A stretch of DNA of 43,136 bases from a virus, in IMG/VR virus record IMGVR_UViG_3300045988_021913, positions 1-43,136 of that record. The stretch is one strand, 5' to 3'. A program made the position numbers and the translations under genes. The stretch's first letter is position 1; every line of letters starts with the position of its first letter. The notes beneath the pieces are model-generated. The model was not told where the DNA came from. It made no database searches and saw nothing but the letters and a program-made list of their open reading frames with translations. Shown here piece by piece: positions 78-39,566 of the stretch.

Positions 78-1316
78 GGAGATTTCTACATTTTCGTCAA
101 GCCCCGCGTTCATGGTGGCATTCCCAAGCCGGAGAAGAACACGGCACAGCTCAGTCAATGCCTGCTCAAGGATAATTTCATGCTTCTTGATTGTTCGGAA
201 CATGGTGCTATTCTCGCTGATGACCTGCGTAGCCGTGGCAATGCTATCTCCACTGAACCGATAATAGGTCTCGCCAAACCCGCACTTGCTGGAAAGAATA
301 TTGAGCTGGTCTTGCAACCCGATATTTAACTGCTGGGTCCTTAACTGTGGGGAAATTGGTTCGACAACGTTCCCTTGCTGCGTGTCCTCTGGGAGAAGGT
401 AAAACCTACTATCGTTATTGTTCAAAGTCGGTTTCCCGTCCTCATACCTTGTTGCTGGCATTTTTACCATCAGCAGCAACGCGCCATTGTCAAACTCGTT
501 GCCATAGCAGTTAAACGCCTTGTCTACACTTTCCAGCACATCAAGAGCATTTGCATAAACAGGGACACCGACGGGCAAGAGATAATCGAAATTGTTGGCG
601 ATGTTCGGGCGATCGATTACAAACTGTTTTTCCGCGCTCCCTGTATGGACGACATGCGGGATATGCTCAAAGCCATCAACGGATGCAAGGCTAACTTCCG
701 ACAGCGTTTCATTCTCGTACAAATAAATGCTGTTTTCGATTGTGTATTTTCCATTCCGCTCTTTTTTAAAGATTTGCAGGAACAAATACTTATGTCCGAG
801 CCGTGTTACAACGCTATCAAATGCGCACTCTGTAATCACACCATTTCGCCACGAAAGCGGGTAAATGTGCTCCATCGTCACATAGTCGATTGCAATGTCT
901 TCCGCACTTCCGGGAATCGGAGCGTCGTAGTCGTTTACTTTCTGTCCAATAACGCGCGGTACATATGCAACCGTTCCGAGCGCGGACTTCATTTCCTGCA
1001 TTTCGTTTGCTTTTACGGTAAAGTTGTTTTCTTCCAAAATGCGGTCAATAAATTCCTGCTCTTTTTTGCCTTCAAGCGTGATTTTAACCTTTTCGTTCAT
1101 GAGCAGATTTGCCCAATCTTCGCAGACTTTCTTTCCCATTCCGAGCGAAGCCCGCTTCTTTTTCACCCACTCATGCCCGTTATATTCCCGGTATCTGTGG
1201 AAATCCTTTACTTTCCCAACATACCAGGACTTCCAGAGGTCAACTTGGCTGTAAAACTCTTCCGGAATCGTCGTATAGCCAAGATCTTTCAACTTTTGGA
1301 TAACTGCACTGCTCAT
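1..1316 (-). CDS. Portal protein, SPP1 gp6-like, 5' part. The ORF runs off the window start and continues in frame at 43059..42945.
   Basis: Absent from the ORF track because it has no stop inside this end of the window. Minus-strand ATG at 1316 gives MSSAVIQKLKDLGYTTIPEEFYSQVDLWKSWYVGKVKDFHRYREYNGHEW... and stays open to nt 1. ATGA overlap with the terL stop. The codon phase was checked across the 77-nt junction (..QLLQAGI|MNDWEFRMKW..). Total length is about 476 aa. It occupies the canonical position after terL. Confidence 0.85.
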   Translation of the reverse strand, partial: MSSAVIQKLKDLGYTTIPEEFYSQVDLWKSWYVGKVKDFHRYREYNGHEWVKKKRASLGMGKKVCEDWANLLMNEKVKITLEGKKEQEFIDRILEENNFTVKANEMQEMKSALGTVAYVPRVIGQKVNDYDAPIPGSAEDIAIDYVTMEHIYPLSWRNGVITECAFDSVVTRLGHKYLFLQIFKKERNGKYTIENSIYLYENETLSEVSLASVDGFEHIPHVVHTGSAEKQFVIDRPNIANNFDYLLPVGVPVYANALDVLESVDKAFNCYGNEFDNGALLLMVKMPATRYEDGKPTLNNNDSRFYLLPEDTQQGNVVEPISPQLRTQQLNIGLQDQLNILSSKCGFGETYYRFSGDSIATATQVISENSTMFRTIKKHEIILEQALTELCRVLLRLGNATMNAGLDENVEISIDFDDSIIEDKQTDFSRDMQLLQAG

Positions 1317-2551
1317 GCAATAACTCCCATTCTACGGCTCACAGGCTCTAAGGCGTACCTTGTCGCATCGATCAAATGATTGTTTGCGTCTGGGTAGCCG
1401 CTGATAATGTCGCCGTCTTTGTTTCTTTCGTATTCGTATCCCACGAACTCATTGTAAGCGTGCGGTGTGCGCCGCCTGTCAATGACAATTGTTCTCCGCT
1501 GCAAAAACTTCATGCCGTACTCTACAGAGCCAGGGCCTTTGATGGCTTCAAAAGCTGGAAGCCGCATAGCGCGGAAGTCCGCAACGCTTTTTGGCTCAGC
1601 GCTGTCGCAAATAATGCGCGTATCGTTGTACCTCCGCTGCAATATCATTTTTGCGCTTTGCTCGTTGGACATTTTGTTTTGATAAATCTCGTCCAGCAAA
1701 TAGATAGTTTCTCTTGCGCGGTCGTAGTAAAGCCGGATAAACGCAAACGGGTCAGGAAAATAGCCCCAGTCCACGCCTTGATACAGTTTGTCAAAACTCG
1801 CAACCTCTGCGTCAGTTATCTCACGCAGCTCCAGCCGGTCAAACACGTTGCCACCCGTGCCCACAGGAATACCTAAATACTCATGCTGGTACGCTCTCTC
1901 GTCCGTGGCCTTGAGATGTTCCGCCTCCGCTAAAAACTGCTCACCAAGCCACTCTGGCGGGGCTTGCAAGTACGTTGACTTGTGACACAGCCTGTCTGTG
2001 CGTTCTTCCAGGCTGTCCTTGTTCGCCCAGTTATCGCGGCTTATCGGCGGGTTGTAGCTTTCAAAGTTCCAATACTTCGAACCGCCGCGCATTGTGGACT
2101 GCAAAATCGTTCGAATTTCTGCGCGTCCGGCAAACTGGTCTTTTTCCTCGAAGTGCGTCACGGCAATGTAGCCAAACGGCACCTTGATAGACTTGATCTT
2201 CATGGGATCGTCAGCGCCCCGGAACATGATTTTCTGGCCTGTAGGCTTGTAGATCAGCTCCATCGGGGAAACCTTTGCTTCCCAATACGCCGCCATGCCC
2301 AGTTCGCCGATTGCCCAGATATACTGTGCGTACACGCTATCGCGGATGGTGTTTGCCACCTTGCGCAACACCAGCGCATGTGTGCCGGGATTGGCAACCA
2401 GCAGAAGCGGCACGATAATTGATACCGTGGAAGATTTCAACGAGCCGCGCCCACCGCTAAAGTCGTAGTGCGTATGCCTATGATGAAAAATGTCATGAGC
2501 AATATCGTAAAACGCAGGGCCGATTTTTTCGGATAAACGAATGTCAGACAT
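1313..2551 (-). CDS. terL: Terminase large subunit (PBSX/Terminase_3-like)
   Basis: 412-aa ORF with a Walker-A-like FSGGRGSLKSST. The overall sequence is typical of PBSX-family terL. It overlaps terS by 8 nt and the portal start by ATGA. Confidence 0.9.
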   Translation of the reverse strand: MSDIRLSEKIGPAFYDIAHDIFHHRHTHYDFSGGRGSLKSSTVSIIVPLLLVANPGTHALVLRKVANTIRDSVYAQYIWAIGELGMAAYWEAKVSPMELIYKPTGQKIMFRGADDPMKIKSIKVPFGYIAVTHFEEKDQFAGRAEIRTILQSTMRGGSKYWNFESYNPPISRDNWANKDSLEERTDRLCHKSTYLQAPPEWLGEQFLAEAEHLKATDERAYQHEYLGIPVGTGGNVFDRLELREITDAEVASFDKLYQGVDWGYFPDPFAFIRLYYDRARETIYLLDEIYQNKMSNEQSAKMILQRRYNDTRIICDSAEPKSVADFRAMRLPAFEAIKGPGSVEYGMKFLQRRTIVIDRRRTPHAYNEFVGYEYERNKDGDIISGYPDANNHLIDATRYALEPVSRRMGVIA

Positions 2552-5298: not shown

Positions 5299-5670
5299 CT
5301 AATTTCCATCGTCAGCTCTCCTGTTCCATGCTTCTTTTGCCTTTGGAATCGACCGCCCGGGATCCAGCGGCAAGAGAAAGAGCCTGCCTTCCTTGTCGGC
5401 CTCGGCCAGTTCCCGCAGGCGGTCATAGCTGCAAAAACTTTCCAAATCAGCAAGTCGCATAAGCTTCAGCGCGATCTCGTCCGCCTTATCCTTCGGCAAA
5501 ACCTCCTCCGGCGTCAGCCCCGTGTCCTCGTAGGCTGCAAGACGCTCCACACACGTCTGTCTGTACGCGCTTTTTGCCGCACGGTCATTGCAATCATTGC
5601 CACCGTAGCAATCTGCCGGATAATTGTAATCCGCTGCGCCGCTTGCGAGATATTTTGTCAGTCTCTTCAT
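5299..5670 (-). CDS. Hypothetical protein (123 aa). Its C-terminal ..EAWNRRA motif is reminiscent of Lar-type restriction-alleviation proteins.
   Basis: ATG 5670 overlaps the upstream TGA. Contains LAAYEDTGLTPEEV and KAKEAWNRRADDGN. The functional link is weak and rests on memory only. Confidence 0.55.
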   Translation of the reverse strand: MKRLTKYLASGAADYNYPADCYGGNDCNDRAAKSAYRQTCVERLAAYEDTGLTPEEVLPKDKADEIALKLMRLADLESFCSYDRLRELAEADKEGRLFLLPLDPGRSIPKAKEAWNRRADDGN

Positions 5671-6425
5671 CACTCCACCTCCTGCATCTTACTAATCACT
5701 TTTCGGATCACATCGCCGCCATAAGCGTCTTTTGTCAACTCCAAAAACTCCGCCAGCGTCATTATGCCGTGCTCGAGATCAACACCGTGGTCGCGGGCAA
5801 ACTGTTTTCTGCCCATGTCGCATGAGCCGGTCAAACGGTGATGCCAGTCGTAAAAATACTGTGTCGGATATGCTTTCTCGCGGTCTGTTTCTCGCAGAAA
5901 CGTGTCGATGCGTTCATCTTCCGGCATATCCTTGAAAAGCTTGCCTCGCAGCGCTTCCATTGCTTCGCGCAGCGTTTCGCCGTGTGCGAAAACATTTCCC
6001 TGCTTGACGATATAGCACGGTGTGAGCGTCAAATCGGCGTTCACGATTGCCCCATGCGCGGTGTTGCCGCGCACGGAACGAATCAGCGTATTTACGCCGT
6101 CAATTCGATAGATTGGTTCTCCATTGAAACTTTTAATGCCGTAGCCGTAGCCGGAGCCGTAGCCGTCGCCGGAGCCGTAGCCGTCGCCGTAGCCGTCGCC
6201 GGAGCCGGAGCCGTAGCCGGAGCCGTCGCCGTAGCCGTAGCCGGAGCCGTAGCCGGAGCCGTAGCCGGAGCCGTCGCCGTAGCCGTCGCCGGAGCCGGAG
6301 CCGTAGCCGTCGCCGGAGCCGGAGCCGTAGCCGTCGCCGTAGCCGTAGCCGTAGCCGTCGCCGTAGCCGTAGCCGTAGCCGGAATTTGCCGTCAGGAATG
6401 CTTTGGTCTTCTCCTCAAGCGTCAT
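5670..6425 (-). CDS. Gly/Tyr-repeat protein: an approximately 81-aa (G-Y-G-[DS]) low-complexity tract followed by a conserved-looking globular C-terminal domain
   Basis: Track ORF trimmed to ATG 6425 (AAGGAGTGG RBS, ATGA overlap with the upstream gene). MTLEEKTKAFLTANS-(GYGYGYGDGYGYGYGDGYGSGSGDGYG...)-IKSFNGEPIYRIDGVNTL... Confidence 0.7.
   Translation of the reverse strand: MTLEEKTKAFLTANSGYGYGYGDGYGYGYGDGYGSGSGDGYGSGSGDGYGDGSGYGSGYGSGYGYGDGSGYGSGSGDGYGDGYGSGDGYGSGYGYGIKSFNGEPIYRIDGVNTLIRSVRGNTAHGAIVNADLTLTPCYIVKQGNVFAHGETLREAMEALRGKLFKDMPEDERIDTFLRETDREKAYPTQYFYDWHHRLTGSCDMGRKQFARDHGVDLEHGIMTLAEFLELTKDAYGGDVIRKVISKMQEVE
6138..6380 (-). repeat. Coding tandem repeat (6/12-nt period, gccgtagcc/gccggagcc) that encodes the GY tract
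   Basis: Read directly. There are about 243 nt of near-perfect short-period repeats. Confidence 0.9.
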
Positions 6426-6712
6426 CTCTTCCACTCCTTTACGCCTCGAAGCGACACCGATGCAGCATCCGTGCACGGGATGATCTGGATTGCTCCCAGC
6501 ACGGTCATCCACGGAATCGTCACGGTAAAACGGCAGTTGCCCGGTGTTTTTGTGCCGTCCTGTGCGAGCTGTTCCACAGCGCATGCGCCATCCCAGCTCC
6601 ACAGCTTACGCACATCAGTCATGGTGACTTCGGAGCCGTTTCTCTCCTTGATCTTTCCGAAAAATACGCCTGCGCAGTCGCAGCGAACGATATAGTCCTG
6701 ATTGTTGTTCAT
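6422..6712 (-). CDS. Hypothetical conserved small phage protein (96 aa)
   Basis: AGGAGG lies 10 nt before ATG 6712. Sequence ..IVRCDCAGVFFGKIKERNGSEVTMTDVRKLWSWDGACAVEQLAQDG... Confidence 0.65.
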   Translation of the reverse strand: MNNNQDYIVRCDCAGVFFGKIKERNGSEVTMTDVRKLWSWDGACAVEQLAQDGTKTPGNCRFTVTIPWMTVLGAIQIIPCTDAASVSLRGVKEWKR

Positions 6713-6736: not shown

Positions 6737-6928
6737 TTAAAATTTGAAGCTCTCTCTGAGCCTGCTCCCGTTTACCTCCGCCTCCGCCGTAAAGTAGCGG
6801 TGGCTCTCGTTGATGTAGATCACGCGCCCATGCGCAGTCGTCTCTTTCGTGGTCACGCTCATAATGCCGTTGCTGCCCTGAAATGCGGCAGGCTTCCAGC
6901 TAAATGGTTCACCGATGTACATGGTCAT
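6737..6928 (-). CDS. Hypothetical protein (63 aa)
   Basis: ATGA overlap with the methyltransferase stop. GGGGAGGA RBS. Confidence 0.55.
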   Translation of the reverse strand: MTMYIGEPFSWKPAAFQGSNGIMSVTTKETTAHGRVIYINESHRYFTAEAEVNGSRLRESFKF

Positions 6929-8499
6929 TCCTCCCCGAATCTAAGTTTTGTAACGGCAACGGGAAATTCTTCGATCTCGCTTGCCCATCGTGCCGTGCCT
7001 TTGCCGTTGTGCCGCTCAAATACCAGGGGGAACCCGCCGATGCCATCAAACAGGCTGCCCATCGTAACGGGGCGCAAATACTGCGCGCTGATGCGCTTTG
7101 CCAAAAAGTCCCAAAACGGCAGCGCGATCGAGTTGCCGCAGGCCTTATAGCGCGGGCTGTCCGCGCTGTCGCGGAGCTTGCCCTTGCTGTCGCGCCACTC
7201 GCCGATGTCCGTCCAGCCGTCCGGATAGCCTTGCAGCCGCTCGCATTCCATCGGCGTGAGGCGGCGCACGATCATTCCCGTGCGGACAGTGTTTTGCAGA
7301 TTCAAACTCTGCCCGCCGCTCTCTTTGGCTTGCAGTGTTCCGTTGATCTCGCCTCCCTCGGTGAAATTGCGGCAATCAACACTGCTGACCACTAAATCGG
7401 TGCTGTCCTTGTAGTCCCGCTGCTTGCAGCTGCTCGCAACATTGCCCTCGCGATAATCACCGAAGCCCTGCATTTGATAGCAAACCGCCGGGACCTCGCC
7501 GAAGGTGTGCAGTGCAGGACACGGCTTGTCCAGTCCGACGGTGCTGCGGTTATTCGGCGATGTGATCTGCGCGCGATCAAATATCAAAACAGACGGACGT
7601 TGATTCGGCCCGTTTGATACCGCGCTCAGCGTCGGCGCGCATTCCTCGGCGTAGCCGATGCCGTTCGCCTTTGCACCCTGCCCCGCCTTAAAGGCCGCGC
7701 AGATCACCGGCTGATTGTTCCCGCTCATGCCGGCCGCAGCGGTCAGCGTAGGTGCTCTGTCGTCTGTGCGAATCTCTGCACCGCCCTGCTGCGTCGCCAT
7801 GCAGATCACTCCGCACGATGCTTGCCCCCTGCTGCTGCCGGCCGAAATGCACATTGCCTTTTCTTTGCTTGTAATCGGGTCTTGCGTCAAGTGGACCGAG
7901 ATTGCGCAGCCAGCGCCCGCTCCAAAATTTCCGGCAGCTTCTTCCCCCGCCGCTCCGCGCGGCGCAGGATGCCCTGACGCGCTTTTGCGCTCAAAGAGTA
8001 TTTCCCCTGCGGTGTCTCCTCCAAAATCTGCGACAATCGAGATACGACGGCGACGTTGGGGGACTCCCCAGTGTTGCGCGTCATGCACTCGCCAAGCCAC
8101 GCTCCATCGTCCTCCCACGTCATCGTGGTAGCCCCCCCAGGTGTTCCAGCCTTTTTCAGGCACTTCAATATCGGGGGCTTCCGGCTCTGCGATGCGGATG
8201 ATCTCTTCAAGGACTGCCGCGAAGTCTCGCCCTTTGTTGCTTGAGAATGCTCCGGGCACGTTTTCCCAGACCATAAACCGAGGTCTGACCATGTCACCTG
8301 TCCGTCCGTTCGATCTGTCATGTTCTCTCATCTCCTTTACGATGCGAACCTGTTCCATGAACAATCCGCTCCTTGCACCGGCCAATCCGGCGCGTTTCCC
8401 TGCAATGCTCAAATCCTGGCACGGGGAGCCGCCCGTGATAACGTCCACGGCCTCGATCTCCGCGCCATTGATTTTCGTAATATCGCCGAGGTGCTTCAT
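6925..8499 (-). CDS. DNA (cytosine-5) methyltransferase with circularly permuted motif order (IV-VI-VIII-TRD-IX/X-I)
   Basis: Track ORF trimmed to ATG 8499 (MKHLGDITKING.., ATGA overlap with the upstream HTH gene, GAGGGAAGAGG RBS). GGSPCQ lies at about 8416-8433, ENV at 8257-8265, QRRRR at 8044-8058, RRLTPMECERLQGYP follows, and GNS is at 7129-7137. Motif I/II (MGSLFDGIGGF..WASEIEEF) is at 6928-7062, at the C-terminus. Confidence 0.85.
   Translation of the reverse strand: MKHLGDITKINGAEIEAVDVITGGSPCQDLSIAGKRAGLAGARSGLFMEQVRIVKEMREHDRSNGRTGDMVRPRFMVWENVPGAFSSNKGRDFAAVLEEIIRIAEPEAPDIEVPEKGWNTWGGYHDDVGGRWSVAWRVHDAQHWGVPQRRRRISIVADFGGDTAGEILFERKSASGHPAPRGAAGEEAAGNFGAGAGCAISVHLTQDPITSKEKAMCISAGSSRGQASCGVICMATQQGGAEIRTDDRAPTLTAAAGMSGNNQPVICAAFKAGQGAKANGIGYAEECAPTLSAVSNGPNQRPSVLIFDRAQITSPNNRSTVGLDKPCPALHTFGEVPAVCYQMQGFGDYREGNVASSCKQRDYKDSTDLVVSSVDCRNFTEGGEINGTLQAKESGGQSLNLQNTVRTGMIVRRLTPMECERLQGYPDGWTDIGEWRDSKGKLRDSADSPRYKACGNSIALPFWDFLAKRISAQYLRPVTMGSLFDGIGGFPLVFERHNGKGTARWASEIEEFPVAVTKLRFGEE
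7887..8321 (-). CDS. 144-codon alternative-frame ORF embedded in the methyltransferase catalytic core (possible overprinted gene, or a frame artefact)
   Basis: ATG 8321, 10 nt after AAGGAG. The product ends ..GESPNVAVVSRLSQILEETPQGKYSLSAKARQGILRRAERRGKKLPEILERALAAQSRST, which is helical and protein-like. See findings. Confidence 0.3.
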   Translation of the reverse strand: MTDRTDGQVTWSDLGLWSGKTCPEHSQATKGETSRQSLKRSSASQSRKPPILKCLKKAGTPGGATTMTWEDDGAWLGECMTRNTGESPNVAVVSRLSQILEETPQGKYSLSAKARQGILRRAERRGKKLPEILERALAAQSRST

Positions 8500-8741
8500 C
8501 CTCTTCCCTCGCATTCCCCGAACAACTCCCGGAACGTCATCCCGGTCAAATCTTCCAGCGCGAGAAACGCTCGCACGGTCACGTCCACGTCGCCCTTGAC
8601 GTAGCGGCTCACGTTGGTCGCCGAAATGCCGGTCGCCTCGGCAAGCGTGGTCTGGTTGTAGTCGGTCTTCTCCAGTGCCGCTTTTAAGCCCAAATACGGG
8701 CAGCGCTCCCACGGGGTCTTGCTCATAACAAATCGGCTCAT
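8496..8741 (-). CDS. HTH (XRE-like) DNA-binding protein
   Basis: AGGAGG lies 8 nt before ATG 8741. Sequence ..YNQTTLAEATGISATNVSRYVKGD... Confidence 0.75.
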   Translation of the reverse strand: MSRFVMSKTPWERCPYLGLKAALEKTDYNQTTLAEATGISATNVSRYVKGDVDVTVRAFLALEDLTGMTFRELFGECEGRG

Positions 8742-8742
8742 A

Positions 8743-9174
8743 TCACTCGCCTCCTAACAGCGCCGCGATGGACACGTCCAGCGCTTCGGCGAGATAGAGA
8801 TACGTCGTGACTATACCGTATCGCTCGCCGCGCTCGATGGACGAGATCGTGCTGTCTGCGACGCCTGACTTCTCCGCAAGTTCTGTTTGGTTCATCCCTC
8901 GCATCAGGCGCAGGGCTTTCACCCTCTCGCCAATGCGTTTCTCGGTCGGGATTCCGCTTTTCCCCTTGTCATCCTCCCGTAAAAAGTCGAGCAGGTTAAT
9001 GCCGACGGCGCGGCAAATCCGCTCGCACAGTGGAATAGTCGGCATGATGCGCGCCATCTCGTAGTTGCACAGCTGCCCTTGCTCAATGCCACACATGCTG
9101 GCAAAACTCGCTTGGCTCATGCCAGCGGCAGCTCTCAGCCCACGAATTCGCTCCGCAGTGTCTTTTACATTCAT
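8743..9174 (-). CDS. Protein with two tandem XRE-type HTH domains
   Basis: Contains ..RAAAGMSQASFASMCGIEQGQLCNYE.. and ..RLMRGMNQTELAEKSGVADSTISSIERGE... Confidence 0.8.
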   Translation of the reverse strand: MNVKDTAERIRGLRAAAGMSQASFASMCGIEQGQLCNYEMARIMPTIPLCERICRAVGINLLDFLREDDKGKSGIPTEKRIGERVKALRLMRGMNQTELAEKSGVADSTISSIERGERYGIVTTYLYLAEALDVSIAALLGGE

Positions 9175-11695: not shown

Positions 11696-11988
11696 GATTC
11701 GTCCTCCAAATAGTTTTTCTTAAATACGGCCATAAAAGTATCGTGGCCGTAAAGCTCTTCAAAGCGCTTCTGACACTCGCGTTTCAGCCGCATATCCAGT
11801 TCGTGACCGTCTTTCCCGTGCACGCCGTAGTCGGCCATGTTGTGCCAGTCGGCGCGCAGCCACACCCAGCAGCCCCAAATATCGGATAGCTGCCGACGGC
11901 CACCACCGTAAATGTGATGTCGCGCGAGGTTCGTTGAGAATCCTGAGATATAGCACTCCCGCTTGTCCTGCATGATGCTTTTAGTCAT
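11689..11988 (-). CDS. HNH/His-Me-finger-like small nuclease candidate
   Basis: ATG 11988 (ATGA overlap, GGAGGA 9 nt upstream). Sequence ..CYISGFSTNLARHHIYGG..WLRADWHN..GVHG... Confidence 0.45.
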   Translation of the reverse strand: MTKSIMQDKRECYISGFSTNLARHHIYGGGRRQLSDIWGCWVWLRADWHNMADYGVHGKDGHELDMRLKRECQKRFEELYGHDTFMAVFKKNYLEDESC

Positions 11989-12506
11989 CTGCCCCATTCC
12001 TCCTTCAATGCGTCAAGTTGCTGCGGGGTCAATGTCTCAATCCCCAGCTCCTTGCAGTCCTGCACGATGTTGTCGATCAGGCGTGACATTTGCCTTGTGT
12101 CAAAGGTGGACGAGCCGTAATACAGCACCACGTTTTTGCATCCGTCGATTTTGCTGTCCATCACTTCCGTCTGCCAGCCGATACCATTCTTGTTCCAGCC
12201 GTCACATAGCTTCTGCACGGCTTTCTCGCGCACACAGACGGTTTCTGTGTTCCCGCCAACGTCCCGCACCTCTCGCCGGTAAACCTCGCTCTTTGGCGCT
12301 CCTGTGGCTTCTGCAAGCTTATCCAGCAGCACCCATGAGTAAGCGTTTGCATCAAGGCTCCGCTTCTCGCGGTGCTTTTTGATGGTCACATCAACGTCAA
12401 CCTCATGCAGCTCGTCATACAGTGTTCCGACGTTCTCCCGCGTAGCAATGGTGAGTAAATACCCACCATCGCGCGCAAGGGTTAGATCATGCAGTCGGGC
12501 TTTCAT
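11985..12506 (-). CDS. NinB/Orf-like recombination mediator (tentative)
   Basis: ..KKHREKRSLDANAYSWVLLDKLAE.. and ..GSSTFDTRQMSRLIDNIVQDCKELGIET.. resemble lambda NinB as remembered. Confidence 0.5.
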   Translation of the reverse strand: MKARLHDLTLARDGGYLLTIATRENVGTLYDELHEVDVDVTIKKHREKRSLDANAYSWVLLDKLAEATGAPKSEVYRREVRDVGGNTETVCVREKAVQKLCDGWNKNGIGWQTEVMDSKIDGCKNVVLYYGSSTFDTRQMSRLIDNIVQDCKELGIETLTPQQLDALKEEWGR

Positions 12507-13122
12507 TTGCTTTTCTCCTTGCCATCATGCAAGCCCAGCAGAGCGGAGCTTTATAGGTCTTTCGCGCGTTCTCCACGATCTCTGCAACCGTGTACGACTT
12601 GCCGCTGTGCGTCACAGGATAGATGGGCTTGCCGCAGTCCTTGCAAACCGGTTTTCCAGCTGCCTCGTTTGGTTGCTGTCTCTCCGGCCTTTGTGTGTAC
12701 GTGGTCGCGTCCTTTGCCCAATACACATCAGCGCCAAAACCGAGCGCCTTGCAGGCAACGGAGATAGCGTCGGTCAGCGCCATTTTGAAGCACTCGTCAG
12801 AGGTGTAAAGCCCGTTTCGTTCGCTGGCGACAAACGCGCTTCCGCCTGTGCCGGGGATCGCATCTGACCACTCACCATCGACTTTAATAAAAAGGTCAAT
12901 GTCCACAAATGCGGAAACCTCGTTGTTCGCGCCATTTTCAAGGCGCTTATCGGTGATGGTATATTTCCAACCAATACCGCAAGGGCCGAACTGCTCCGTC
13001 AGCGCCTTAATGCGCCACATGGGGTTAATGTCGGTCTTGCCTTTCAGCCTCCCCGCTTGAATTTCGCGCTGTGCAAACGGCGGGACTTGCCGCACGCTTT
13101 CATAAATTCCAAGGTTTTCCAT
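12487..13122 (-). CDS. Rad52/Sak-type single-strand annealing protein with a C-terminal zinc ribbon
   Basis: ..GRLKGKTDINPMWRIKALTEQFGPCGIGWKY..SDECFKMALTDAISVACKALGFGADVY.. The C-terminus has CKDCGK...CWAC. Confidence 0.8.
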   Translation of the reverse strand: MENLGIYESVRQVPPFAQREIQAGRLKGKTDINPMWRIKALTEQFGPCGIGWKYTITDKRLENGANNEVSAFVDIDLFIKVDGEWSDAIPGTGGSAFVASERNGLYTSDECFKMALTDAISVACKALGFGADVYWAKDATTYTQRPERQQPNEAAGKPVCKDCGKPIYPVTHSGKSYTVAEIVENARKTYKAPLCWACMMARRKANESPTA

Positions 13123-13607
13123 CACTTCACCCCCATGCTCATGCCCTGTACAAGCATCGCACCGTCGATTTCAGCACCGTTTTTCAGCAACGGGGCAAGG
13201 TCAGTCTTGCTCACCGTGGGGGCGTTGTAAGTAACCTCGCCATCGTGACCGTTGGCGAGCATCCACGCCACCACCGCGCCCATGTCGGAGACCTCCACGC
13301 TGGTGGTCTTGCGGTAGCTGATGGAGCATCGCGGGGTTGAAAACTTCTCGCCGTTCAGAACAGAATCGAGATATTTTTTCTTGCTCTCTGCCGCGCGTTC
13401 TAAAGCCTGTCTGCGCGCCGCAAGGGTCTTCTCTTCTTCGCGGATCGCCTTTGCTTCGGCAACATCGTTTTTAATCCAAAGCGCGATGTTCTCGATCTTC
13501 TGATCTCGTTCCATACTCAGCGCCATGAGCTTCTCAACGTCAAGGATTTCGCCGGTCTCGGCGTCTACACATTCCGCAAGCGCGGAATCAATCTGATAAA
13601 GGTTCAT
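13122..13607 (-). CDS. Siphovirus Gp157-like protein
   Basis: Track ORF trimmed to ATG 13607 (GGAGGGA RBS). MNLYQIDSALAECVDAETGEILD...IENIALWIKNDVAEAKAIREEEKTL... Confidence 0.7.
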   Translation of the reverse strand: MNLYQIDSALAECVDAETGEILDVEKLMALSMERDQKIENIALWIKNDVAEAKAIREEEKTLAARRQALERAAESKKKYLDSVLNGEKFSTPRCSISYRKTTSVEVSDMGAVVAWMLANGHDGEVTYNAPTVSKTDLAPLLKNGAEIDGAMLVQGMSMGVK

Positions 13608-13752
13608 CTTTTCCCTCCGTAATATTGTCTGTGCCACAGTAAGGGCACACGGTTTGAGTGGTAATCGTCCAGTTTTCAGCGTCCAAATTTTCCCGGTACG
13701 CATAAAGCGCAGGCTCCCGGAAATCCGCACCGCAAGCAAAGCAGTGCATCAT
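13588..13752 (-). CDS. Small zinc-ribbon protein (54 aa)
   Basis: Below the track cut-off. Its ATG overlaps the upstream TGA. MMHCFACGADF...VCPYCGTDN... Confidence 0.45.
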   Translation of the reverse strand: MMHCFACGADFREPALYAYRENLDAENWTITTQTVCPYCGTDNITEGKDEPLSD

Positions 13753-18058: not shown

Positions 18059-18475
18059 GTGAACATTCAGAAACGATGTCAGGAGCAAAAAGACTTGTTA
18101 AGACTAACGCATCAAGATATTGCCGACAAAGCAGGCTTACCGTTGCAAACAGTAAAAAATTTTTTCTCCCGCGCATCTAAGTCCCCATCAGTTTATACGG
18201 TCGCTGCGATTTGCAAAGTGCTTGGCATATCTCTTGATGAAATATTCGGAATTTCCGAACACTTGACGCCGACCGAAGAAACCTTGCAGGCGCGAAACGA
18301 TGAGCTAGAACGCCACGTTGACGCAAAGACTGATACCATCGAGATCATGCGGCGTGGAGTGCGTATCCGCAACATTGTGATTGCTATAATGTTTGTCATC
18401 ATTGCTATGCTTGCTGTGTGGTGCGTGTACATTGATTTTCACTGCATAGATTACGGATTTTGGAGGGGGATTTGA
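18059..18475 (+). CDS. Membrane-anchored XRE HTH protein
   Basis: GTG start. Contains ..LRLTHQDIADKAGLPLQTVKNFFS.., then a coiled segment and the TM helix IVIAIMFVIIAMLAVWCVYI. Its stop overlaps the integrase ATG. Confidence 0.65.
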   Translation: MNIQKRCQEQKDLLRLTHQDIADKAGLPLQTVKNFFSRASKSPSVYTVAAICKVLGISLDEIFGISEHLTPTEETLQARNDELERHVDAKTDTIEIMRRGVRIRNIVIAIMFVIIAMLAVWCVYIDFHCIDYGFWRGI

Positions 18476-19488
18476 TGAAAATACCAAAAGCAAAACTGCT
18501 GCCATCTGGGAACTGGAATGTCAGCGTCATGGTAGACGGAAAGCGGGTGTCCGTCACAGCGCTTACCAAGCGGCAAGCAGAGAACGAAGCCGCCGCATTG
18601 AAGTCCGGCGCGAAGTCTGCTGCTCGTGCGTCCGAGCGCACGGTTGGTGATGCTATCGACCGATATATCGACAGCAAGGACGCAATACTCTCCCCCTCCA
18701 CCGTCAACGGGTACAGAAAACTCCGCAAGGTGGTTTTCCCGGAGCTGATGAGCGTTAAATGCGCCGCGTTGACGCAAGACCGCGTGCAGCGTGCCGTGAA
18801 TAAGATGGCGCGGGAAAAGTCCCCTAAGTATGTCCGCAACGCTTACGGCCTGTTTACTGCGGCAATGGCGGAGGAATGCCCGGATAAAGTGTTCCGTGTA
18901 TCCTTGCCACAGAAAGAAGCCCCTAAAATCAAAATACCTACCATGGAAGAAATCAGAACCTTACACGAAGACTGCAAAGGCACAGCGTTTGAATTGCCTT
19001 TCCTTCTGGCCGTCTGGCTCGGCCTCCGTACATCGGAGATCAGAGGTCTGACATGGGATTGCCTTGACGGCGATATTCTGACGATCAAGCAAGCAATGGT
19101 AGACGGTGAGGACGGCCCGCAGCTCAAGCAGCCTAAAACCTATAGCGGAAACAGAAGACTAAAAGTGCCGCCGTATATTATGGGGCTGCTTAACGCAACA
19201 CCGCGCGCAGATGAGTATATTGTCCATGCGACCAGGAACGTCCTGTATAAGCATCTGCAACGCGCGTGCGCTCGATGTGGTATCCCTCCGTTCCGATTTC
19301 ACGACCTCCGTCATGTAAATGCGTCGGTCATGCTCAGGCTCAACGTTCCCGACAAATACGCAATGGAGCGCATGGGGCACTCTACAAACAACATGCTAAA
19401 AAACGTATATCAGCACACAATGAATGATAAAGCCGTAGCAGTGGCAGATGCCGTTGACGGCTTTTTTGAATCCGAATTTCATCTGTAA
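18475..19488 (+). CDS. int: Tyrosine recombinase / phage integrase
   Basis: ATG 18475 after GGAGGGGG. Contains ..LRTSEIRGLTW.., HDLRHVNASVML, ..MGHSTNNMLKNVYQH... Confidence 0.9.
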   Translation: MKIPKAKLLPSGNWNVSVMVDGKRVSVTALTKRQAENEAAALKSGAKSAARASERTVGDAIDRYIDSKDAILSPSTVNGYRKLRKVVFPELMSVKCAALTQDRVQRAVNKMAREKSPKYVRNAYGLFTAAMAEECPDKVFRVSLPQKEAPKIKIPTMEEIRTLHEDCKGTAFELPFLLAVWLGLRTSEIRGLTWDCLDGDILTIKQAMVDGEDGPQLKQPKTYSGNRRLKVPPYIMGLLNATPRADEYIVHATRNVLYKHLQRACARCGIPPFRFHDLRHVNASVMLRLNVPDKYAMERMGHSTNNMLKNVYQHTMNDKAVAVADAVDGFFESEFHL

Positions 19489-32418: not shown

Positions 32419-34380
32419 TTAGTACAGCAGTACGGGCTTACCCGCCGCGCGCGTCATGTTGTTAATGTTCTTCACGGTGCTGCGTGCGATTTCTTTACCG
32501 TCAAGCTGGATAACAACAGTGGTTGCACCGCCGCCAGATTCCGCCATAGCCTGCTTAAATGCGTCGACCATTGTTGCAAGCGGTGTTTCGATGTTCGTCC
32601 CGCTTTTCTGGTCGCCCAGCACGGCAAGAAATTCTTTGTTGGGCGGGATAACTGCACCGGTCGCCAAACGCGGCAAACGAACCTCAGAGAGCGAAGAAAT
32701 ATGCCCGCCAATGCTTTTGCCGCCGACACCGGGAACCCAACTCGGAACAGTAAACTTGATCGTATTGATTTTACTAATCAGCCAGTTCAAGCCTTTAATG
32801 ACGGCATTGATGGCGCTCTCGGCAATAATAACGATGCTGTTCCAGATGCCAGAGAAAACTTTTTTGACACCTTCCCACGCAGATTTCCAGTTGCCCGTGA
32901 ACACGCCCTTGATAAATTGGATAATTCCCCCGAGGATATTATCTTTCAAGTTTCTGGCAAACTCTGTCAAATTACCTGTAAGCGCAAGCGCCGCCGTAAC
33001 TACAGATGCGATGCCAGCAATAACAAGAGGGATAACGCTGCCGGTCAGAAAAAAGAACCCCAGCCCCGTTGCCACAATGCCAGCAATCAATAACAGCGTA
33101 TTTTGAAGATTTGCACCGTTATCACAAATGTCCTTAAACGCTGTGATAATCATTGCTGCGCCAGCCACTACAAGGCCGATGCCCGCGCCGACTTTGCCGA
33201 ATGCGATTGCAAGCCCCACGGCAAGCGCCGCTGTGCCTGCAAGCATTTCGAGCAGATTCCCCCAGTTAACGCCGTTATTCCATGCGTCGGATAAGCCGTC
33301 CCACAGAAGAATCAATCCGCCGACCGCGATGAGGATACCGCCGAGTTTGGTTAGAATCTTTCCCAATTCTCCGGGAAGCGAACTGCCGATTTTCCACAGT
33401 GCAAGCCCTGCGGCAATAAGCATGACTGCATCAGCGATTTTCTTTAAGCGGTCGCTGATGTCATCCATGTAGCTAAAGTCCGGAGTGATTGCGTCAGCGG
33501 ATGCGCCACCGCCCGCATCGTTTGCGGTATCGGTGGAAATCTGGTTGATCTCATCAAACGCCGCAAGCTGGCTTGCCGCTTTCTTCGCGGCACTGCCCGT
33601 TCCCTTTAATGCGCTGGTCTCTTTGTTTAGCGCCTTTGCCGAGTTAGCAGTTGCCTTGACGCTCTTGCCGGAGATAAGCGCCACAAGACGCGTGATCTGC
33701 GAGACTACTGCCGTGATAACTTTTACAAGCAGGGTAAAGGCGGGGACAATTACACTTACAAGAGGCTGTGCCAGCGTCAAAAGCGCTCCTTTAAGCTGCG
33801 CAATGGATTCTCTTGCCTTGGAGTTTACCATTACGACGTTCTTTACCCAGTCACGCACTTTTGTTAATGCTTGGGTAATAACTGTAAAAACAAGTGCACT
33901 GCGGACAACGGATTTTAAGCGCTGCCCAAATACTTTCATGGAATCTGCCGCCGCTTCGGTTGCGTTGCGCAGCCCTGCGCCTTTGGCTCTGCCCTCGATC
34001 TGCTGTGTTAGCTCGACTGCCTGCGTTTTTGCGTCGGAAATCTTATCGCCGGTTTTGTTGAGCTTTTCATTGAGCTTATCAATGCTATTTGCAGTTTTGT
34101 TAAATTCGCTTTGCAGCATTCGCACGCGCTCGGCCTGCTCGGACACATCGATTTTCTCATACGTGCCTTTTGGCGCTGTGCGCATATCGGCAAGCTCCTG
34201 TTTTGCCGCATCCAGCTCTGCGCCGATGTTGCGCAGCCGGTCTTCCATCGGCGTTTTTTGGTCGCCGAGCCGGTTGAACTCCTTTTGTAAGGATTCGATA
34301 TTGCTTTTAACTTTGTTTAACTCCTGATGGAGTTTTTTGTCGCTAATAGTCGCTTCAAATACGACTTCGCCGTCAGCCAT
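32419..34380 (-). CDS. Tape measure protein
   Basis: Track ORF trimmed to ATG 34380 (GAAGGTG RBS). 653 aa with a coiled-coil N-terminus and multiple Gly/Ala-rich TM-like segments. Confidence 0.85.
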   Translation of the reverse strand: MADGEVVFEATISDKKLHQELNKVKSNIESLQKEFNRLGDQKTPMEDRLRNIGAELDAAKQELADMRTAPKGTYEKIDVSEQAERVRMLQSEFNKTANSIDKLNEKLNKTGDKISDAKTQAVELTQQIEGRAKGAGLRNATEAAADSMKVFGQRLKSVVRSALVFTVITQALTKVRDWVKNVVMVNSKARESIAQLKGALLTLAQPLVSVIVPAFTLLVKVITAVVSQITRLVALISGKSVKATANSAKALNKETSALKGTGSAAKKAASQLAAFDEINQISTDTANDAGGGASADAITPDFSYMDDISDRLKKIADAVMLIAAGLALWKIGSSLPGELGKILTKLGGILIAVGGLILLWDGLSDAWNNGVNWGNLLEMLAGTAALAVGLAIAFGKVGAGIGLVVAGAAMIITAFKDICDNGANLQNTLLLIAGIVATGLGFFFLTGSVIPLVIAGIASVVTAALALTGNLTEFARNLKDNILGGIIQFIKGVFTGNWKSAWEGVKKVFSGIWNSIVIIAESAINAVIKGLNWLISKINTIKFTVPSWVPGVGGKSIGGHISSLSEVRLPRLATGAVIPPNKEFLAVLGDQKSGTNIETPLATMVDAFKQAMAESGGGATTVVIQLDGKEIARSTVKNINNMTRAAGKPVLLY

Positions 34381-34392
34381 AATATCACCTTC

Positions 34393-34421
34393 TTGCTTTT
34401 TGGTTTTTTGCGTGATATCAT
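34393..34421 (+). promoter_or_regulatory. Candidate extended -10 promoter (TTGCTT, 17 nt, TG-a-TATCAT) for the DUF4352 moron
   Basis: Read directly. Confidence 0.4.
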
Positions 34422-34458
34422 CCAAGAAGCCATAAATAATGGCAAGGAGGAATGAAAA

Positions 34459-35037
34459 ATGGATAAGATGACTACTTGCAAGGTATGCGGGGCATCTATC
34501 GCAAAATCCGCTACCACTTGCCCGCAGTGTGGAGCCAAGCAGAAAAAGCGCCACCCAGTGCTGGGAATTATCATTGCTATTTTCGGTATTTGCATGATCG
34601 CCGCCGCATTAAACGACATGGGCGATGCCCCTGGCGCGGAGAAACAGACATTTGGCGTTGGAGAAACCGCCGAGTTAAATGGGATCAGCGTAAAGTTTGA
34701 TTCCTGCACCGAAAGCAATGGATCGCAGTTCAACACGCCTGATGATGGAAATGTGTTTCTGCTTTGCGAATTCTCAATTGATAACCAGTCGGATAAAGAT
34801 ATTGCCGTTAGTTCTATCGCATCGTTCAACGCCTATGTTGATGACTACTCGACAAATCTGAGCATTTCAGCCACCATCGCAACCGATAAAACTCAGCTGG
34901 ACGGGGCTATTGCTGCCGGGAAGAAAATGACCGGCGTTGTCGGATACGAAGTCCCCAAAGACTGGAAAGAAATTGAAATTCGCTTCACTCCAGACTTTTG
35001 GTCTGGAAACGAAATTACATTCATTGCGGACAAGTAA
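34459..35037 (+). CDS. DUF4352-like membrane-anchored protein with an N-terminal zinc ribbon (moron)
   Basis: AAGGAGG RBS. CKVCGASI..CPQCGAK, TM helix VLGIIIAIFGICMIAAAL, then ..VFLLCEFSIDNQSDKDIAVSS..VVGYEVPKDWKEIEIRF. Confidence 0.8.
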   Translation: MDKMTTCKVCGASIAKSATTCPQCGAKQKKRHPVLGIIIAIFGICMIAAALNDMGDAPGAEKQTFGVGETAELNGISVKFDSCTESNGSQFNTPDDGNVFLLCEFSIDNQSDKDIAVSSIASFNAYVDDYSTNLSISATIATDKTQLDGAIAAGKKMTGVVGYEVPKDWKEIEIRFTPDFWSGNEITFIADK

Positions 35038-38354: not shown

Positions 38355-39566
38355 TTAAGAAACGGTAACAGTGGCAGTGCCGGTCTTCGTGCTGTCCTGC
38401 TTGGACTTGGCCGTAACGGTGATACTGGTCTTAGTCTCAGCGGAGTCGATAGTCAGCAAGCCGTCTTCGCTGATCTTGGACTTCGTGCCATTCTGGCTCC
38501 ACTCGACCTCGCCGTTGATAATGCCCTCGCCGGTAACAGCAGCAGTAAACGCCTTGCTGTCGCCCTTTGCCATCGTCGCGGTAGCGGGCGAGACGGTAAC
38601 AGCAGAGATGTCGCCGCCCTTGCCGTAAACAGAGAACGGGAACGGATTTGCCTTTTCCGCGTTGTAGGCGTTGATGGGGTTCGCGATCTCCCAGCCGAGA
38701 CGCATGACTGCGCGCAGCGCCACCATATCGTTCTGCATGAGGTTGTAGGTGATAGCCTTCGTGGTGGGATCCTGAATAACGCCCTCGGTGAAGATCTTGA
38801 AGGTCATGTCCTGACGAATGGCATAAACCAGCTGGCTCCAATCACCGACGATCATCTGCGCCTGTGCGGGGTCAAACGCGCCGTTCATGGGGAAGTACAT
38901 GTCCATGCCGTCCAGGCCGTAACGGGTAGCGCCCTGCATATCGGACTTGAAGATGGGCTGGCCGGTGGTGTCCTTCAGGCCGCGCAGCTTACCGCGCATC
39001 TGGATGGCGGACATGACGCCGTTGGGGTTGAAGCCGTCCAGCTCCACCTTGGCGATAAGGCCGTTCTCGCCCATGATGTCATCGAACACGTTGGTGCCGA
39101 CGGGAACACCGTTACCGGCAGCGATAGCAGCAGGCACAACGCCAGTGCGCCAAGTGCTGGGTTTGTTGGTGCCGAACAGAATAGCCGCGTCAATGACCTT
39201 GCCGAAAGCCTCGGTCAGACGGGGCTTGACCTCGCCCCAAATGTCATAGTCCGCATCATCGAGAGCGGCCTCGGGAATGGGGACGATGACCGCGATCTCC
39301 TCGGCGTACAGTTTCTTCTTGTCCCACGCCATCTTCGTGGTCTGCTTGAATGCCTCGCCTGCGCCACTGTCAGTGGCTTCGCCATTGACAAAGTACGCAG
39401 AGGGAAGTGCGTCAAGCACGTTGATGGTCTGCGTCTTGCTGGACATATTTGCCAGACGACGGCCCATGCGCAGGACCGCGGATTCCGCGATAGCGCCCTG
39501 CATGATCTCGCGGGTTACGGGTTCCGGAATAAGTCCGGAAAGTGCGGAACGATCAATAGTTGCCAT
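38355..39566 (-). CDS. Major capsid protein (HK97-fold type) with a C-terminal Big_2 Ig-like domain
   Basis: AGGAG RBS. 403 aa. The C-terminus reads ..VTVSPATATMAKGDSKAFTAAVTGEG..VEWSQNG..LLTIDSAETKTSITVTAKS... Confidence 0.85.
   Translation of the reverse strand: MATIDRSALSGLIPEPVTREIMQGAIAESAVLRMGRRLANMSSKTQTINVLDALPSAYFVNGEATDSGAGEAFKQTTKMAWDKKKLYAEEIAVIVPIPEAALDDADYDIWGEVKPRLTEAFGKVIDAAILFGTNKPSTWRTGVVPAAIAAGNGVPVGTNVFDDIMGENGLIAKVELDGFNPNGVMSAIQMRGKLRGLKDTTGQPIFKSDMQGATRYGLDGMDMYFPMNGAFDPAQAQMIVGDWSQLVYAIRQDMTFKIFTEGVIQDPTTKAITYNLMQNDMVALRAVMRLGWEIANPINAYNAEKANPFPFSVYGKGGDISAVTVSPATATMAKGDSKAFTAAVTGEGIINGEVEWSQNGTKSKISEDGLLTIDSAETKTSITVTAKSKQDSTKTGTATVTVS

Follow-up and report, generated by a model that had tools for sequence, protein, structure and literature searches.

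In this study, we have examined a cytosine-5 DNA methyltransferase (C5-MTase) gene in the complete genome of a temperate siphovirus-like gut phage, IMG/VR virus record IMGVR_UViG_3300045988_021913 (positions 1-43136; this whole stretch of 43,136 nucleotides is called the window below). The gene lies on the minus strand as an uninterrupted open reading frame (ORF) from an ATG at 8499 to a TGA at 6925-6927 and encodes 524 residues, whose conserved motifs do not follow the linear order from I to X: the chain runs III-IV-VI-VIII, then a variable region with target-recognition domains (TRDs), then IX-X, a linker and finally I-II. Based on the sequence comparisons presented here, we regard it as a natural, widespread and selectively maintained circular permutant of a phage C5-MTase, cut between motifs II and III, and we also describe a candidate gene that overlaps it in the +1 frame.

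Anatomy of the permuted methyltransferase

The protein passes the profile cut-offs for DNA C5-MTases, with 127 bits against a cut-off of 22 for PF00145 (Pfam, the match being spread over four stretches of the chain) and 119.7 bits against 100.65 for TIGR00675, and motifs I, II, IV, VI, VIII, IX and X are all present and conserved (Table 1). The rearranged order emerges from phmmer alignments to PDB sequences, in which residues 3-58 correspond to M.HhaI 57-112, with GDIT (motif III) and PCQ (motif IV), residues 137-157 to the QxRxR region, residues 411-430 to motif IX (M.HhaI 271-290), and residues 480-523 to M.HhaI 14-55, with the FxGxGG of motif I and the acidic residue of motif II. The cut point lies between M.HhaI residues 55 and 57, i.e. 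between motifs II and III.

The original prediction, made from the letters of the window alone, had proposed a circular permutation with motifs I and II at the C-terminus, and the PDB alignment and the comparison of homologues both agree with it. The positions that it gave for ENV, QRRRR, GNS and the C-terminal segment are correct, and the ATG does overlap the upstream stop as it said, but the ORF begins at motif III (GDIT, residues 5-8) and not at motif IV. It had also allowed that a separate gene might supply motif I and leave the last 45 residues dispensable; tblastn finds no further copy of the I-II segment in the window, and those residues are under strong purifying selection.

Table 1. 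Coordinates of the methyltransferase gene, its motifs and other features of the window.
Feature	Position	Strand	Remarks
Predicted circularly permuted C5 DNA methyltransferase, coding sequence	6925..8499	-	open ORF, 524 aa and stop
Motif III, G5-D-I-T8, new N-terminus directly behind the start codon	8476..8487	-	H3, G5, D6, I7 at least 90% conserved (114 sequences)
Motif IV, GGSPCQDLS, catalytic Cys27	8407..8433	-	P26, C27, Q28 invariant
Motif VI, ENV (E79)	8257..8265	-	E79, V81 invariant
Motif VIII, QRRRR	8044..8058	-	Q148, R149, R150, R152 at least 90% conserved
Variable region, residues 173-404, several TRD-like modules (..APTL..G..NQP..)	7288..7983	-	module turnover; AlphaFold pLDDT <50
Motif IX, RRLTPMECERLQGYPDGW	7213..7266	-	alignment to M.HhaI 271-290; R412 to W429 conserved
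Motif X, GNS	7129..7137	-	G455, N456, S457 invariant
Linker KRISAQYLRPVT, old C-terminal helix to old N-terminus	7063..7098	-	invariant in close homologues; pLDDT 94-98
Relocated AdoMet-binding segment, motifs I-II, then stop	6925..7062	-	alignment to M.HhaI 14-55, conservation, dN/dS, model
Motif I, FDGIGG	7033-7050		L483, F484, G486 invariant
Motif II, WASEIE	6970-6987		E508 at least 90% conserved
Candidate overlapping +1-frame ORF, 144 codons, ATG start, MTase codons 60-204	7887..8321	-	stops, synonymous diversity, alternative-frame dN/dS
Upstream HTH regulator gene, stop overlapping the MTase start (ATGA)	8496..8741	-	XRE-like; translationally coupled to MTase
Second XRE-like HTH regulator gene, further upstream	8743-9174	-	two tandem HTH domains
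Downstream small ORF, phrog_27610, ATG overlapping the MTase stop	6737..6928	-	ORF overlap
Terminase	1313-2551		
Gam/exonuclease/NinB	11985-13739		
Integrase	18460-19488	+	
Tape measure	32419-34554		
Major head	38355-39566		
AdoMet, S-adenosylmethionine; pLDDT, predicted local distance difference test; dN/dS, ratio of nonsynonymous to synonymous substitution rates; HTH, helix-turn-helix.

Distribution of the permuted layout

The permuted layout is not an isolated case but that of a large and widespread phage and prophage family. A search of 5.8 billion proteins returned 8000 matches to the window MTase, and the best 120 of these 8000 cover the query over 100% of its length; these best homologues stem from assemblies in ENA, Logan, JGI and NCBI, as a rule from phage contigs of 40-45 kb. 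All of the homologue sequences that we read begin with MKHLGDIT and end with ..MGSLFDGIGGFP..WASEIEEFPIAVTKLRFGEE, the C-termini being of the form FDGIGG..AVTKLRFGEE. An exhaustive phmmer scan of 1.84 billion representatives at 50% identity gave 4281 matches below 1e-30. For the classification of topologies, the window protein was split into segments A (motifs I-II), B (III-VIII) and C (IX-X), BCA being the permuted and ABC the canonical order; the nearest 150 of the 50%-identity representatives comprise 123 BCA proteins, 15 canonical ABC proteins and 4 CAB proteins, the rest being fragments.

DNA loci were classified by segment order and reading frame. The permuted gene is intact in 79 of 80 IMG/VR loci and in 37 genome loci, among them the isolates Gemmiger sp. 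An87 and Intestinibacillus massiliensis Marseille-P3216T, and 21 further permuted genome loci hold the pieces of the gene in different frames. The closest genomic copy, at 84% identity, is that of Oscillibacter sp. ER4. Sixteen genome loci are canonical, e.g. those of Sellimonas catena (a closed genome), Blautia schinkii, Lachnoanaerobaculum and Ruminiclostridium papyrosolvens. In the databases, permuted sequences are annotated as 'DNA (cytosine-5)-methyltransferase' only, or are split into pieces, as in phage FP_Toutatis (NC_047915 gp14+gp15), where a frameshifted gene is annotated as two 'DNA methyltransferase' coding sequences. Annotation pipelines miss or mis-split permuted, presumably multispecific MTases, which is relevant to predicting the restriction barriers between gut phages and their hosts.

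Some permuted homologues carry inteins inside catalytic motifs, in motif VI (ENV/C...HN/C) of P0185 and P0136 and near motif IV of P0170. These insertions match the Pfam entries Intein_splicing, Hint_2 and LAGLIDADG_3, and some have LAGLIDADG homing endonuclease domains.

Conservation, selection and predicted structure

The motif residues given as invariant in Table 1 are so in all of 114 aligned permuted sequences, which reach down to 43% identity, and in the same alignment G488, G489, W505, S507, E508 and I509 of the relocated segment are at least 90% conserved. By codon-level comparison of up to 106 loci, dN/dS is 0.08-0.10 over the 42 C-terminal codons (motifs I-II), 0.09-0.12 over the first 58 codons (III-IV) and 0.14 over IX-X. 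Purifying selection acts on the relocated I-II segment no less strongly than on the catalytic motifs.

An AlphaFold2 model, fed with an alignment of the permuted family, gives block pLDDT values of 91-98 over residues 1-170, except for a dip (65-81) around 21-50 and one block at 85, and of 89-98 over residues 411-520, with the relocated I-II segment at 94-98. The nearest solved folds found by Foldseek are M.HhaI, M.HaeIII and M.MpeI. The C-terminal tail is modelled as a strand (480-483), a helix (489-498), a second strand (503-507) and a second helix (511-521), elements that correspond in the model to strand1-helixA-strand2-helixB of the MTase Rossmann fold. An AlphaFold model had been proposed as the means of checking whether the C-terminus completes this fold; a strand-helix-strand-helix unit is obtained, and its high pLDDT and secondary structure suggest that it packs in place. 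Behind its short linker, the C-terminal I-II unit would complete the AdoMet-binding Rossmann sheet.

Origin of the permutation

Comparison with canonical relatives at about 50% identity (P0217, P0241, P0247 and P0264) locates both junctions. The canonical proteins read M-T-L-G-S-L-F-D-G-I-G-G-F-P...W-A-S-E-I-E...V-T-x-x-(R/H)-F-P-x-M-x-H-L-G-D-I-T. Permuted proteins start exactly at the internal Met of the canonical ..RFPxM/xHLGD.. (as MKHLGD) and terminate in ..VTKLRFGEE or ..HFPE, with at most one residue duplicated or lost at the break. At the other junction, the canonical last helix (..GNS.A.P....) is followed by about 8 residues and then by T-(L/M)-G-S-L-F-D-G, which is the canonical N-terminus minus its Met. 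Both junctions therefore fit an in-frame tandem duplication with truncation at both ends, and the permuted gene could have arisen when such a duplication lost the 5' I-II part from its first copy and the III-X part from its second. The original prediction had called the break clean and had proposed duplication followed by truncation; against the canonical relatives the break proves exact to the residue, and the junction sequences of canonical and permuted enzymes fit the proposed route. Retention of the old start Met in the linker was considered and rejected, as M480 corresponds to canonical position 3 (L/M/I) and the old Met position is now V, A or P.

In a rough neighbour-joining (NJ) tree over 277 shared columns, the 15 canonical sequences form one cluster with only one permuted member, which is compatible with one or few origins of the permutation. 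Redundant intermediates, e.g. with I-II at both ends, are absent among 270 proteins. A third topology, TRD-IX-X-linker-I-II-III-...-VIII-TRD, is found in four complete genes of the clade (P0128, P0206, P0232 and P0266), of which P0128 (L002 1637-3259) occurs on three contigs and P0206 lies at L001 1707-2876. The X-to-I linker of these CAB genes is that of the permuted sequences nearest to them, the canonical ..FPxMxHLGD.. junction is restored in them, and they are scattered among BCA sequences in the NJ tree; we infer that they descend from BCA-type genes by a second round of permutation, of the M.BssHII kind. Canonical, II/III-permuted and variable-region-permuted genes with a common linker offer a natural test bed for the duplication-and-truncation model.

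An overlapping reading frame

The +1-frame ORF was traced from two database proteins, P0208 and P0201, whose unfamiliar N-terminus, placed before TRD-IX-X-I-II, corresponds to the +1 frame of the MTase gene. A Shine-Dalgarno-like AAGGAG lies at 8332-8337, about 10 nucleotides (nt) upstream of its start. In 105 of 105 homologous permuted coding sequences, the +1 frame is free of stops from codon 60 to 25 codons past motif VIII, as against 3.7 stops per 100 codons elsewhere in the +1 frame of the same genes and about 6 stops in the +2 frame of the overlap region; when the window gene is shuffled among synonymous codons, the probability of no stop is about 0.1 per sequence. The first +1 ATG stands at codon 59-61 in 73 of 92 unique genes. 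Synonymous diversity in frame 0 is 0.49-0.53 outside the overlap and falls through 0.37, 0.27 and 0.21 to 0.16 over codons 60-204. An OLGenie-type partition gives alternative-frame dN/dS values of 1.01 and 0.66 for control codons 1-58 and 400-522, of 0.37 for codons 61-130 and of 0.18 for codons 131-200, where the value for frame 0 is only 0.34.

The encoded peptide has the consensus M..DGQxSLFD..WSGKTSPEHS...GESPNVAVESRLSQILE..P.KYxLSAKACQGILRRAERRGKxLP. Past motif VIII, its identity (..LSQILE..P.KYxLSAKACQGILRRAERRGKxLP..) is 0.62 vs 0.57 for the frame-0 linker. ORF and peptide are also present in canonical relatives and in CAB variants, including the closed genome of one isolate, with an MTase that shares only 38% identity with that of the window. 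No match to the peptide was found in Pfam, NCBIfam, PADLOC or PDB, by sequence or by profile, and its AlphaFold model is weak (mean pLDDT 59, with only the C-terminal helices reaching 73-84) and has no Foldseek match. Its only family match, phrog_16143 (E 1.4e-7), is weak and was judged uninformative. We also considered whether the peptide is an ordinary in-frame domain elsewhere and rejected this, the database matches being stand-alone calls or frameshift fusions at MTase loci only.

From the stop, diversity and selection patterns, the overlapping ORF is probably a real gene. In the reading that we somewhat favour, the MTase gene would be dual-coding, with a +1 protein of about 145 aa over motifs V-VIII and the post-VIII linker throughout the clade (in canonical, Type B and IX-X-I-VIII forms), a feature apparently undescribed: the literature that we searched yielded no description of this overlapping ORF. 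Its product could be a partner or regulator of the MTase, or an independent overprinted phage factor. If translated, the ORF would add to the small number of long overlaps on one strand known from genes of tailed phages, and would do so in a class of enzymes that finds wide use as tools. If this reading is true, a clade with three topologies and one X-to-I linker would offer a natural record of permutation by duplication together with a long same-strand overlap in double-stranded DNA phages.

Some frameshifted loci join the frames, in various ways. At L167 (2410-3913), the alternative-frame ORF is joined to TRD-IX-X-I-II through an indel of 1 nt at a G-run (AVRIRGG/CDGGGKG), a variant shared by 4 contigs of different samples, and L172 (2818-4546) has several frameshifts; both could reflect decay or phase variation. 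Among loci shifted after motif VIII, TRD-IX-X-I-II lies in the frame of the alternative ORF 12 times and in the other frame 3 times, a bias that comes from related sequences and is suggestive without being independent evidence; prophage gene decay explains most of it.

To our knowledge, M.EcoHK31I is the one precedent for a second frame inside a C5-MTase gene. There, the beta chain is encoded in another frame within the alpha gene and supplies motif IX (PMC2836561). The window gene resembles it in having a second ORF in another frame, functional in M.EcoHK31I and predicted here. Unlike in M.EcoHK31I, motif IX is part of frame 0, and the predicted 144-aa product of the +1 frame lies over motifs V-VIII; because all motifs sit in frame 0, the alternative-frame product supplies no missing motif.

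Target recognition and probable function

The variable region, about 230 residues long, is built from five or six units, each 30-45 aa in length and of the ..(A/S)PTL..G..N(Q)P.. type. Whole units are lost, gained or exchanged among homologues that are 80-96% identical in the core, and some modules are common to permuted MTases and canonical relatives. The Bacillus phage MTases SPR, phi3T, rho11s and H2 are orphan C5-MTases with tandem TRD modules of about 40 aa, each thought to confer one specificity, and have the canonical motif order. The window MTase is, like them, an orphan phage enzyme with tandem modules, a likeness of architecture, and is unlike them permuted. Because its module architecture resembles that of these multispecific enzymes, it may methylate several target sequences for protection. 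No restriction endonuclease stands next to the MTase, its neighbours being HTH regulators, replication genes and small ORFs, and the best PADLOC model is oMTase ('orphan methyltransferase').

It is likely, on the evidence of motif order, conservation in the family, selection and the predicted structure, that the gene encodes a single-chain natural permutant, predicted to be catalytically competent, which would act as an orphan, probably multispecific, anti-restriction MTase. The motifs, the selection on them and the activity of engineered analogues (see below) suggest that it forms 5-methylcytosine on DNA. Expressed together with the early replication module, such an orphan MTase would methylate the phage DNA, which would then evade host restriction enzymes.

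Alternative explanations

Several points weigh against the interpretation set out above. About 18% of the permuted loci (26 of 144) are frameshifted, mostly in prophages and metagenome-assembled genomes (MAGs), so that the gene is often lost or split, and both cultured Faecalibacterium phages, FP_Toutatis and Lelie, carry a frameshift in the permuted MTase. The shift lies between motifs VI and VIII in FP_Toutatis (L165 1976-3387), in Lelie (L166) and in Oscillibacter sp. ER4 (L006); ORF1 of FP_Toutatis covers III-VI and then continues in an alternative-frame tail. The packing of the C-terminal tail against strand 4 is suggested by high pLDDT and secondary structure, and Foldseek, whose alignments follow the order of the sequence, covered no more than about 160 columns of the model (motifs III-VIII). 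The tree is a crude one (NJ, 277 columns), with the nearest relatives as its canonical sampling, and the multispecificity, which we call probable, is argued from module architecture.

Among the competing explanations, the one that survives best is that the functional unit extends beyond the single chain, with the +1 product as a partner or regulator of the MTase, or with G-run indels that switch between fused and split forms. The +1 ORF is under purifying selection and conserved in canonical and permuted genes alike, the post-VIII shifts favour alternative-frame joining (12 vs 3), the L167 indel falls at a G-run, and a C5-MTase subunit in another frame has a precedent (PMC2836561). Yet all ten motifs are in frame 0 with nothing obviously missing, and the alternative peptide has no MTase motif, no database or PDB match and a weak model. 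Moreover, the 12:3 bias is weak and based on related sequences, and it is mainly prophages and MAGs that carry frameshifted copies, as decay predicts. We consider this explanation unlikely.

The gene could also be decaying or inactive, its C-terminal I-II block being vestigial, and the protein having lost AdoMet binding or having another role. The 26 loci with pieces in different frames, FP_Toutatis and Lelie among the frameshifted, would fit such a fate, and Albert et al. speculated that Type B enzymes bind SAM more weakly (PMC5944983). This seems quite improbable, given that the dN/dS of the I-II block (about 0.1) is as low as that of motif IV, that F484 and G486 are invariant with G488, G489 and E508 at least 90% conserved in sequences that reach down to 45% identity, that 79 of the 80 viral loci are intact, and that the window gene itself is intact with translational coupling at both ends.

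Equally improbable is an MTase whose target is other than phage DNA for anti-restriction, for example RNA, or host DNA in an epigenetic control exerted by the prophage. An integrase (Table 1) marks the phage as temperate, so that a lysogen could express the enzyme; however, its motifs and its TRD/IX region match those of DNA C5-MTases, the solved structures closest to it belong to DNA enzymes, its gene is part of the early replication operon and not adjacent to the lysogeny module, and the rapid turnover of TRD modules would match an arms race with restriction.

Finally, an assembly chimera or local mis-join, in which the assembler put I-II behind motif X, the window being a viral contig from a metagenome that matches an IMG/VR UViG at 100%, can safely be set aside: the same junctions recur in hundreds of independently assembled contigs (ENA, Logan, JGI, NCBI), in isolate genomes (two of them with the intact gene) and in GenBank phages, and the reading frame is kept across the junction in homologues diverged down to about 45% identity.

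Relation to known permuted methyltransferases

The topology that we describe as natural is known from engineered enzymes. Albert et al. (2018) built 21 circular permutants of M.MpeI and M.SssI, and the Type B class, which is defined on these engineered enzymes, was the most active topology (cp62M.MpeI and cp58M.SssI), with cp62M.MpeI reaching wild-type activity (PMC5944983). The window MTase agrees with this class: as in cp62M.MpeI and cp58M.SssI, the new N-terminus lies between II and III, the old termini are joined directly or by a short linker, and III-X precede I-II, with X followed by I in one chain. The cpM.HaeIII variants, from a permutation-by-duplication experiment cited in the same work (PMC5944983), are similar to engineered Type B. 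Unlike the engineered constructs, which are CG-specific and monospecific, the topology of the window MTase is natural and old (members down to about 45% identity) and occurs in multi-TRD phage enzymes.

Type B was stated not to occur among natural C5-MTases; of the 27 natural permuted C5-MTases that a REBASE search had turned up, every one has its cut in the variable region, as in M.BssHII, and the authors, puzzled by the natural absence of the II/III break, which their enzymes had tolerated best, proposed weaker SAM binding as the reason (PMC5944983). A 2020 review still recorded a single alternative natural motif order for C5-MTases. In the literature that we searched, including papers citing PMC5944983, we found no description of a natural II/III-permuted C5-MTase. 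For 25 years, the record of bacterial C5-MTases contained, besides the canonical order, just one natural arrangement of motifs, the M.BssHII type; the II/III topology is in fact common in gut phages and fills a gap that the field had explicitly noted. The weak-SAM-binding hypothesis can now be tested on natural pairs of permuted and canonical enzymes at about 50% identity.

M.BssHII, M.Alw26I, M2.Eco31I, M.Esp3I and M2.BsaI are likewise natural permutants with the same fold, and this group (Type H/J) is thought to have arisen by duplication and truncation. They differ from the window enzyme, as the original prediction had stated for M.BssHII, in having their break in the variable region, with IX-X before I-VIII; the window protein is BCA and not CAB. 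The canonical Dcm-type MTases of Clostridia phages and prophages (e.g. P0217, P0241, P0247 and P0264, and the Sellimonas catena prophage gene L045) are about 50% identical to it in all motif blocks, have 'ADFGG..EILFE' after motif VIII, and have in common with it some TRD modules, the genomic context and the +1 overlapping ORF; in contrast to the window enzyme, their motifs run from I to X, their motif IX-X insert is shorter and their C-terminal helix is free. A permuted Rossmann MTase fold is also known from plant DRM2 and the class beta amino-MTases. In class beta, the order IV-VIII, TRD, X, I-III comes near that of the window enzyme, but these are N6A/N4C MTases unrelated in sequence, and DRM2 runs VI-X and then I-V.

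Genomic context

Over the MTase gene, the window is identical to IMGVR_UViG_3300045988_008597. The gene forms the end of an early operon that holds Gam-like, exonuclease, NinB, replication initiator, DnaC-like loader and resolvase genes and the two HTH regulators, and this part of the operon is tightly coupled, because the MTase start and stop both overlap adjacent genes (Table 1). Further downstream, the minus-strand ORF at 5670-6602, which has no match in Pfam or PHROG, encodes a long low-complexity (G-Y-G-x-G-D/S)n repeat, about 110 residues in length, behind which the C-terminal half looks globular.

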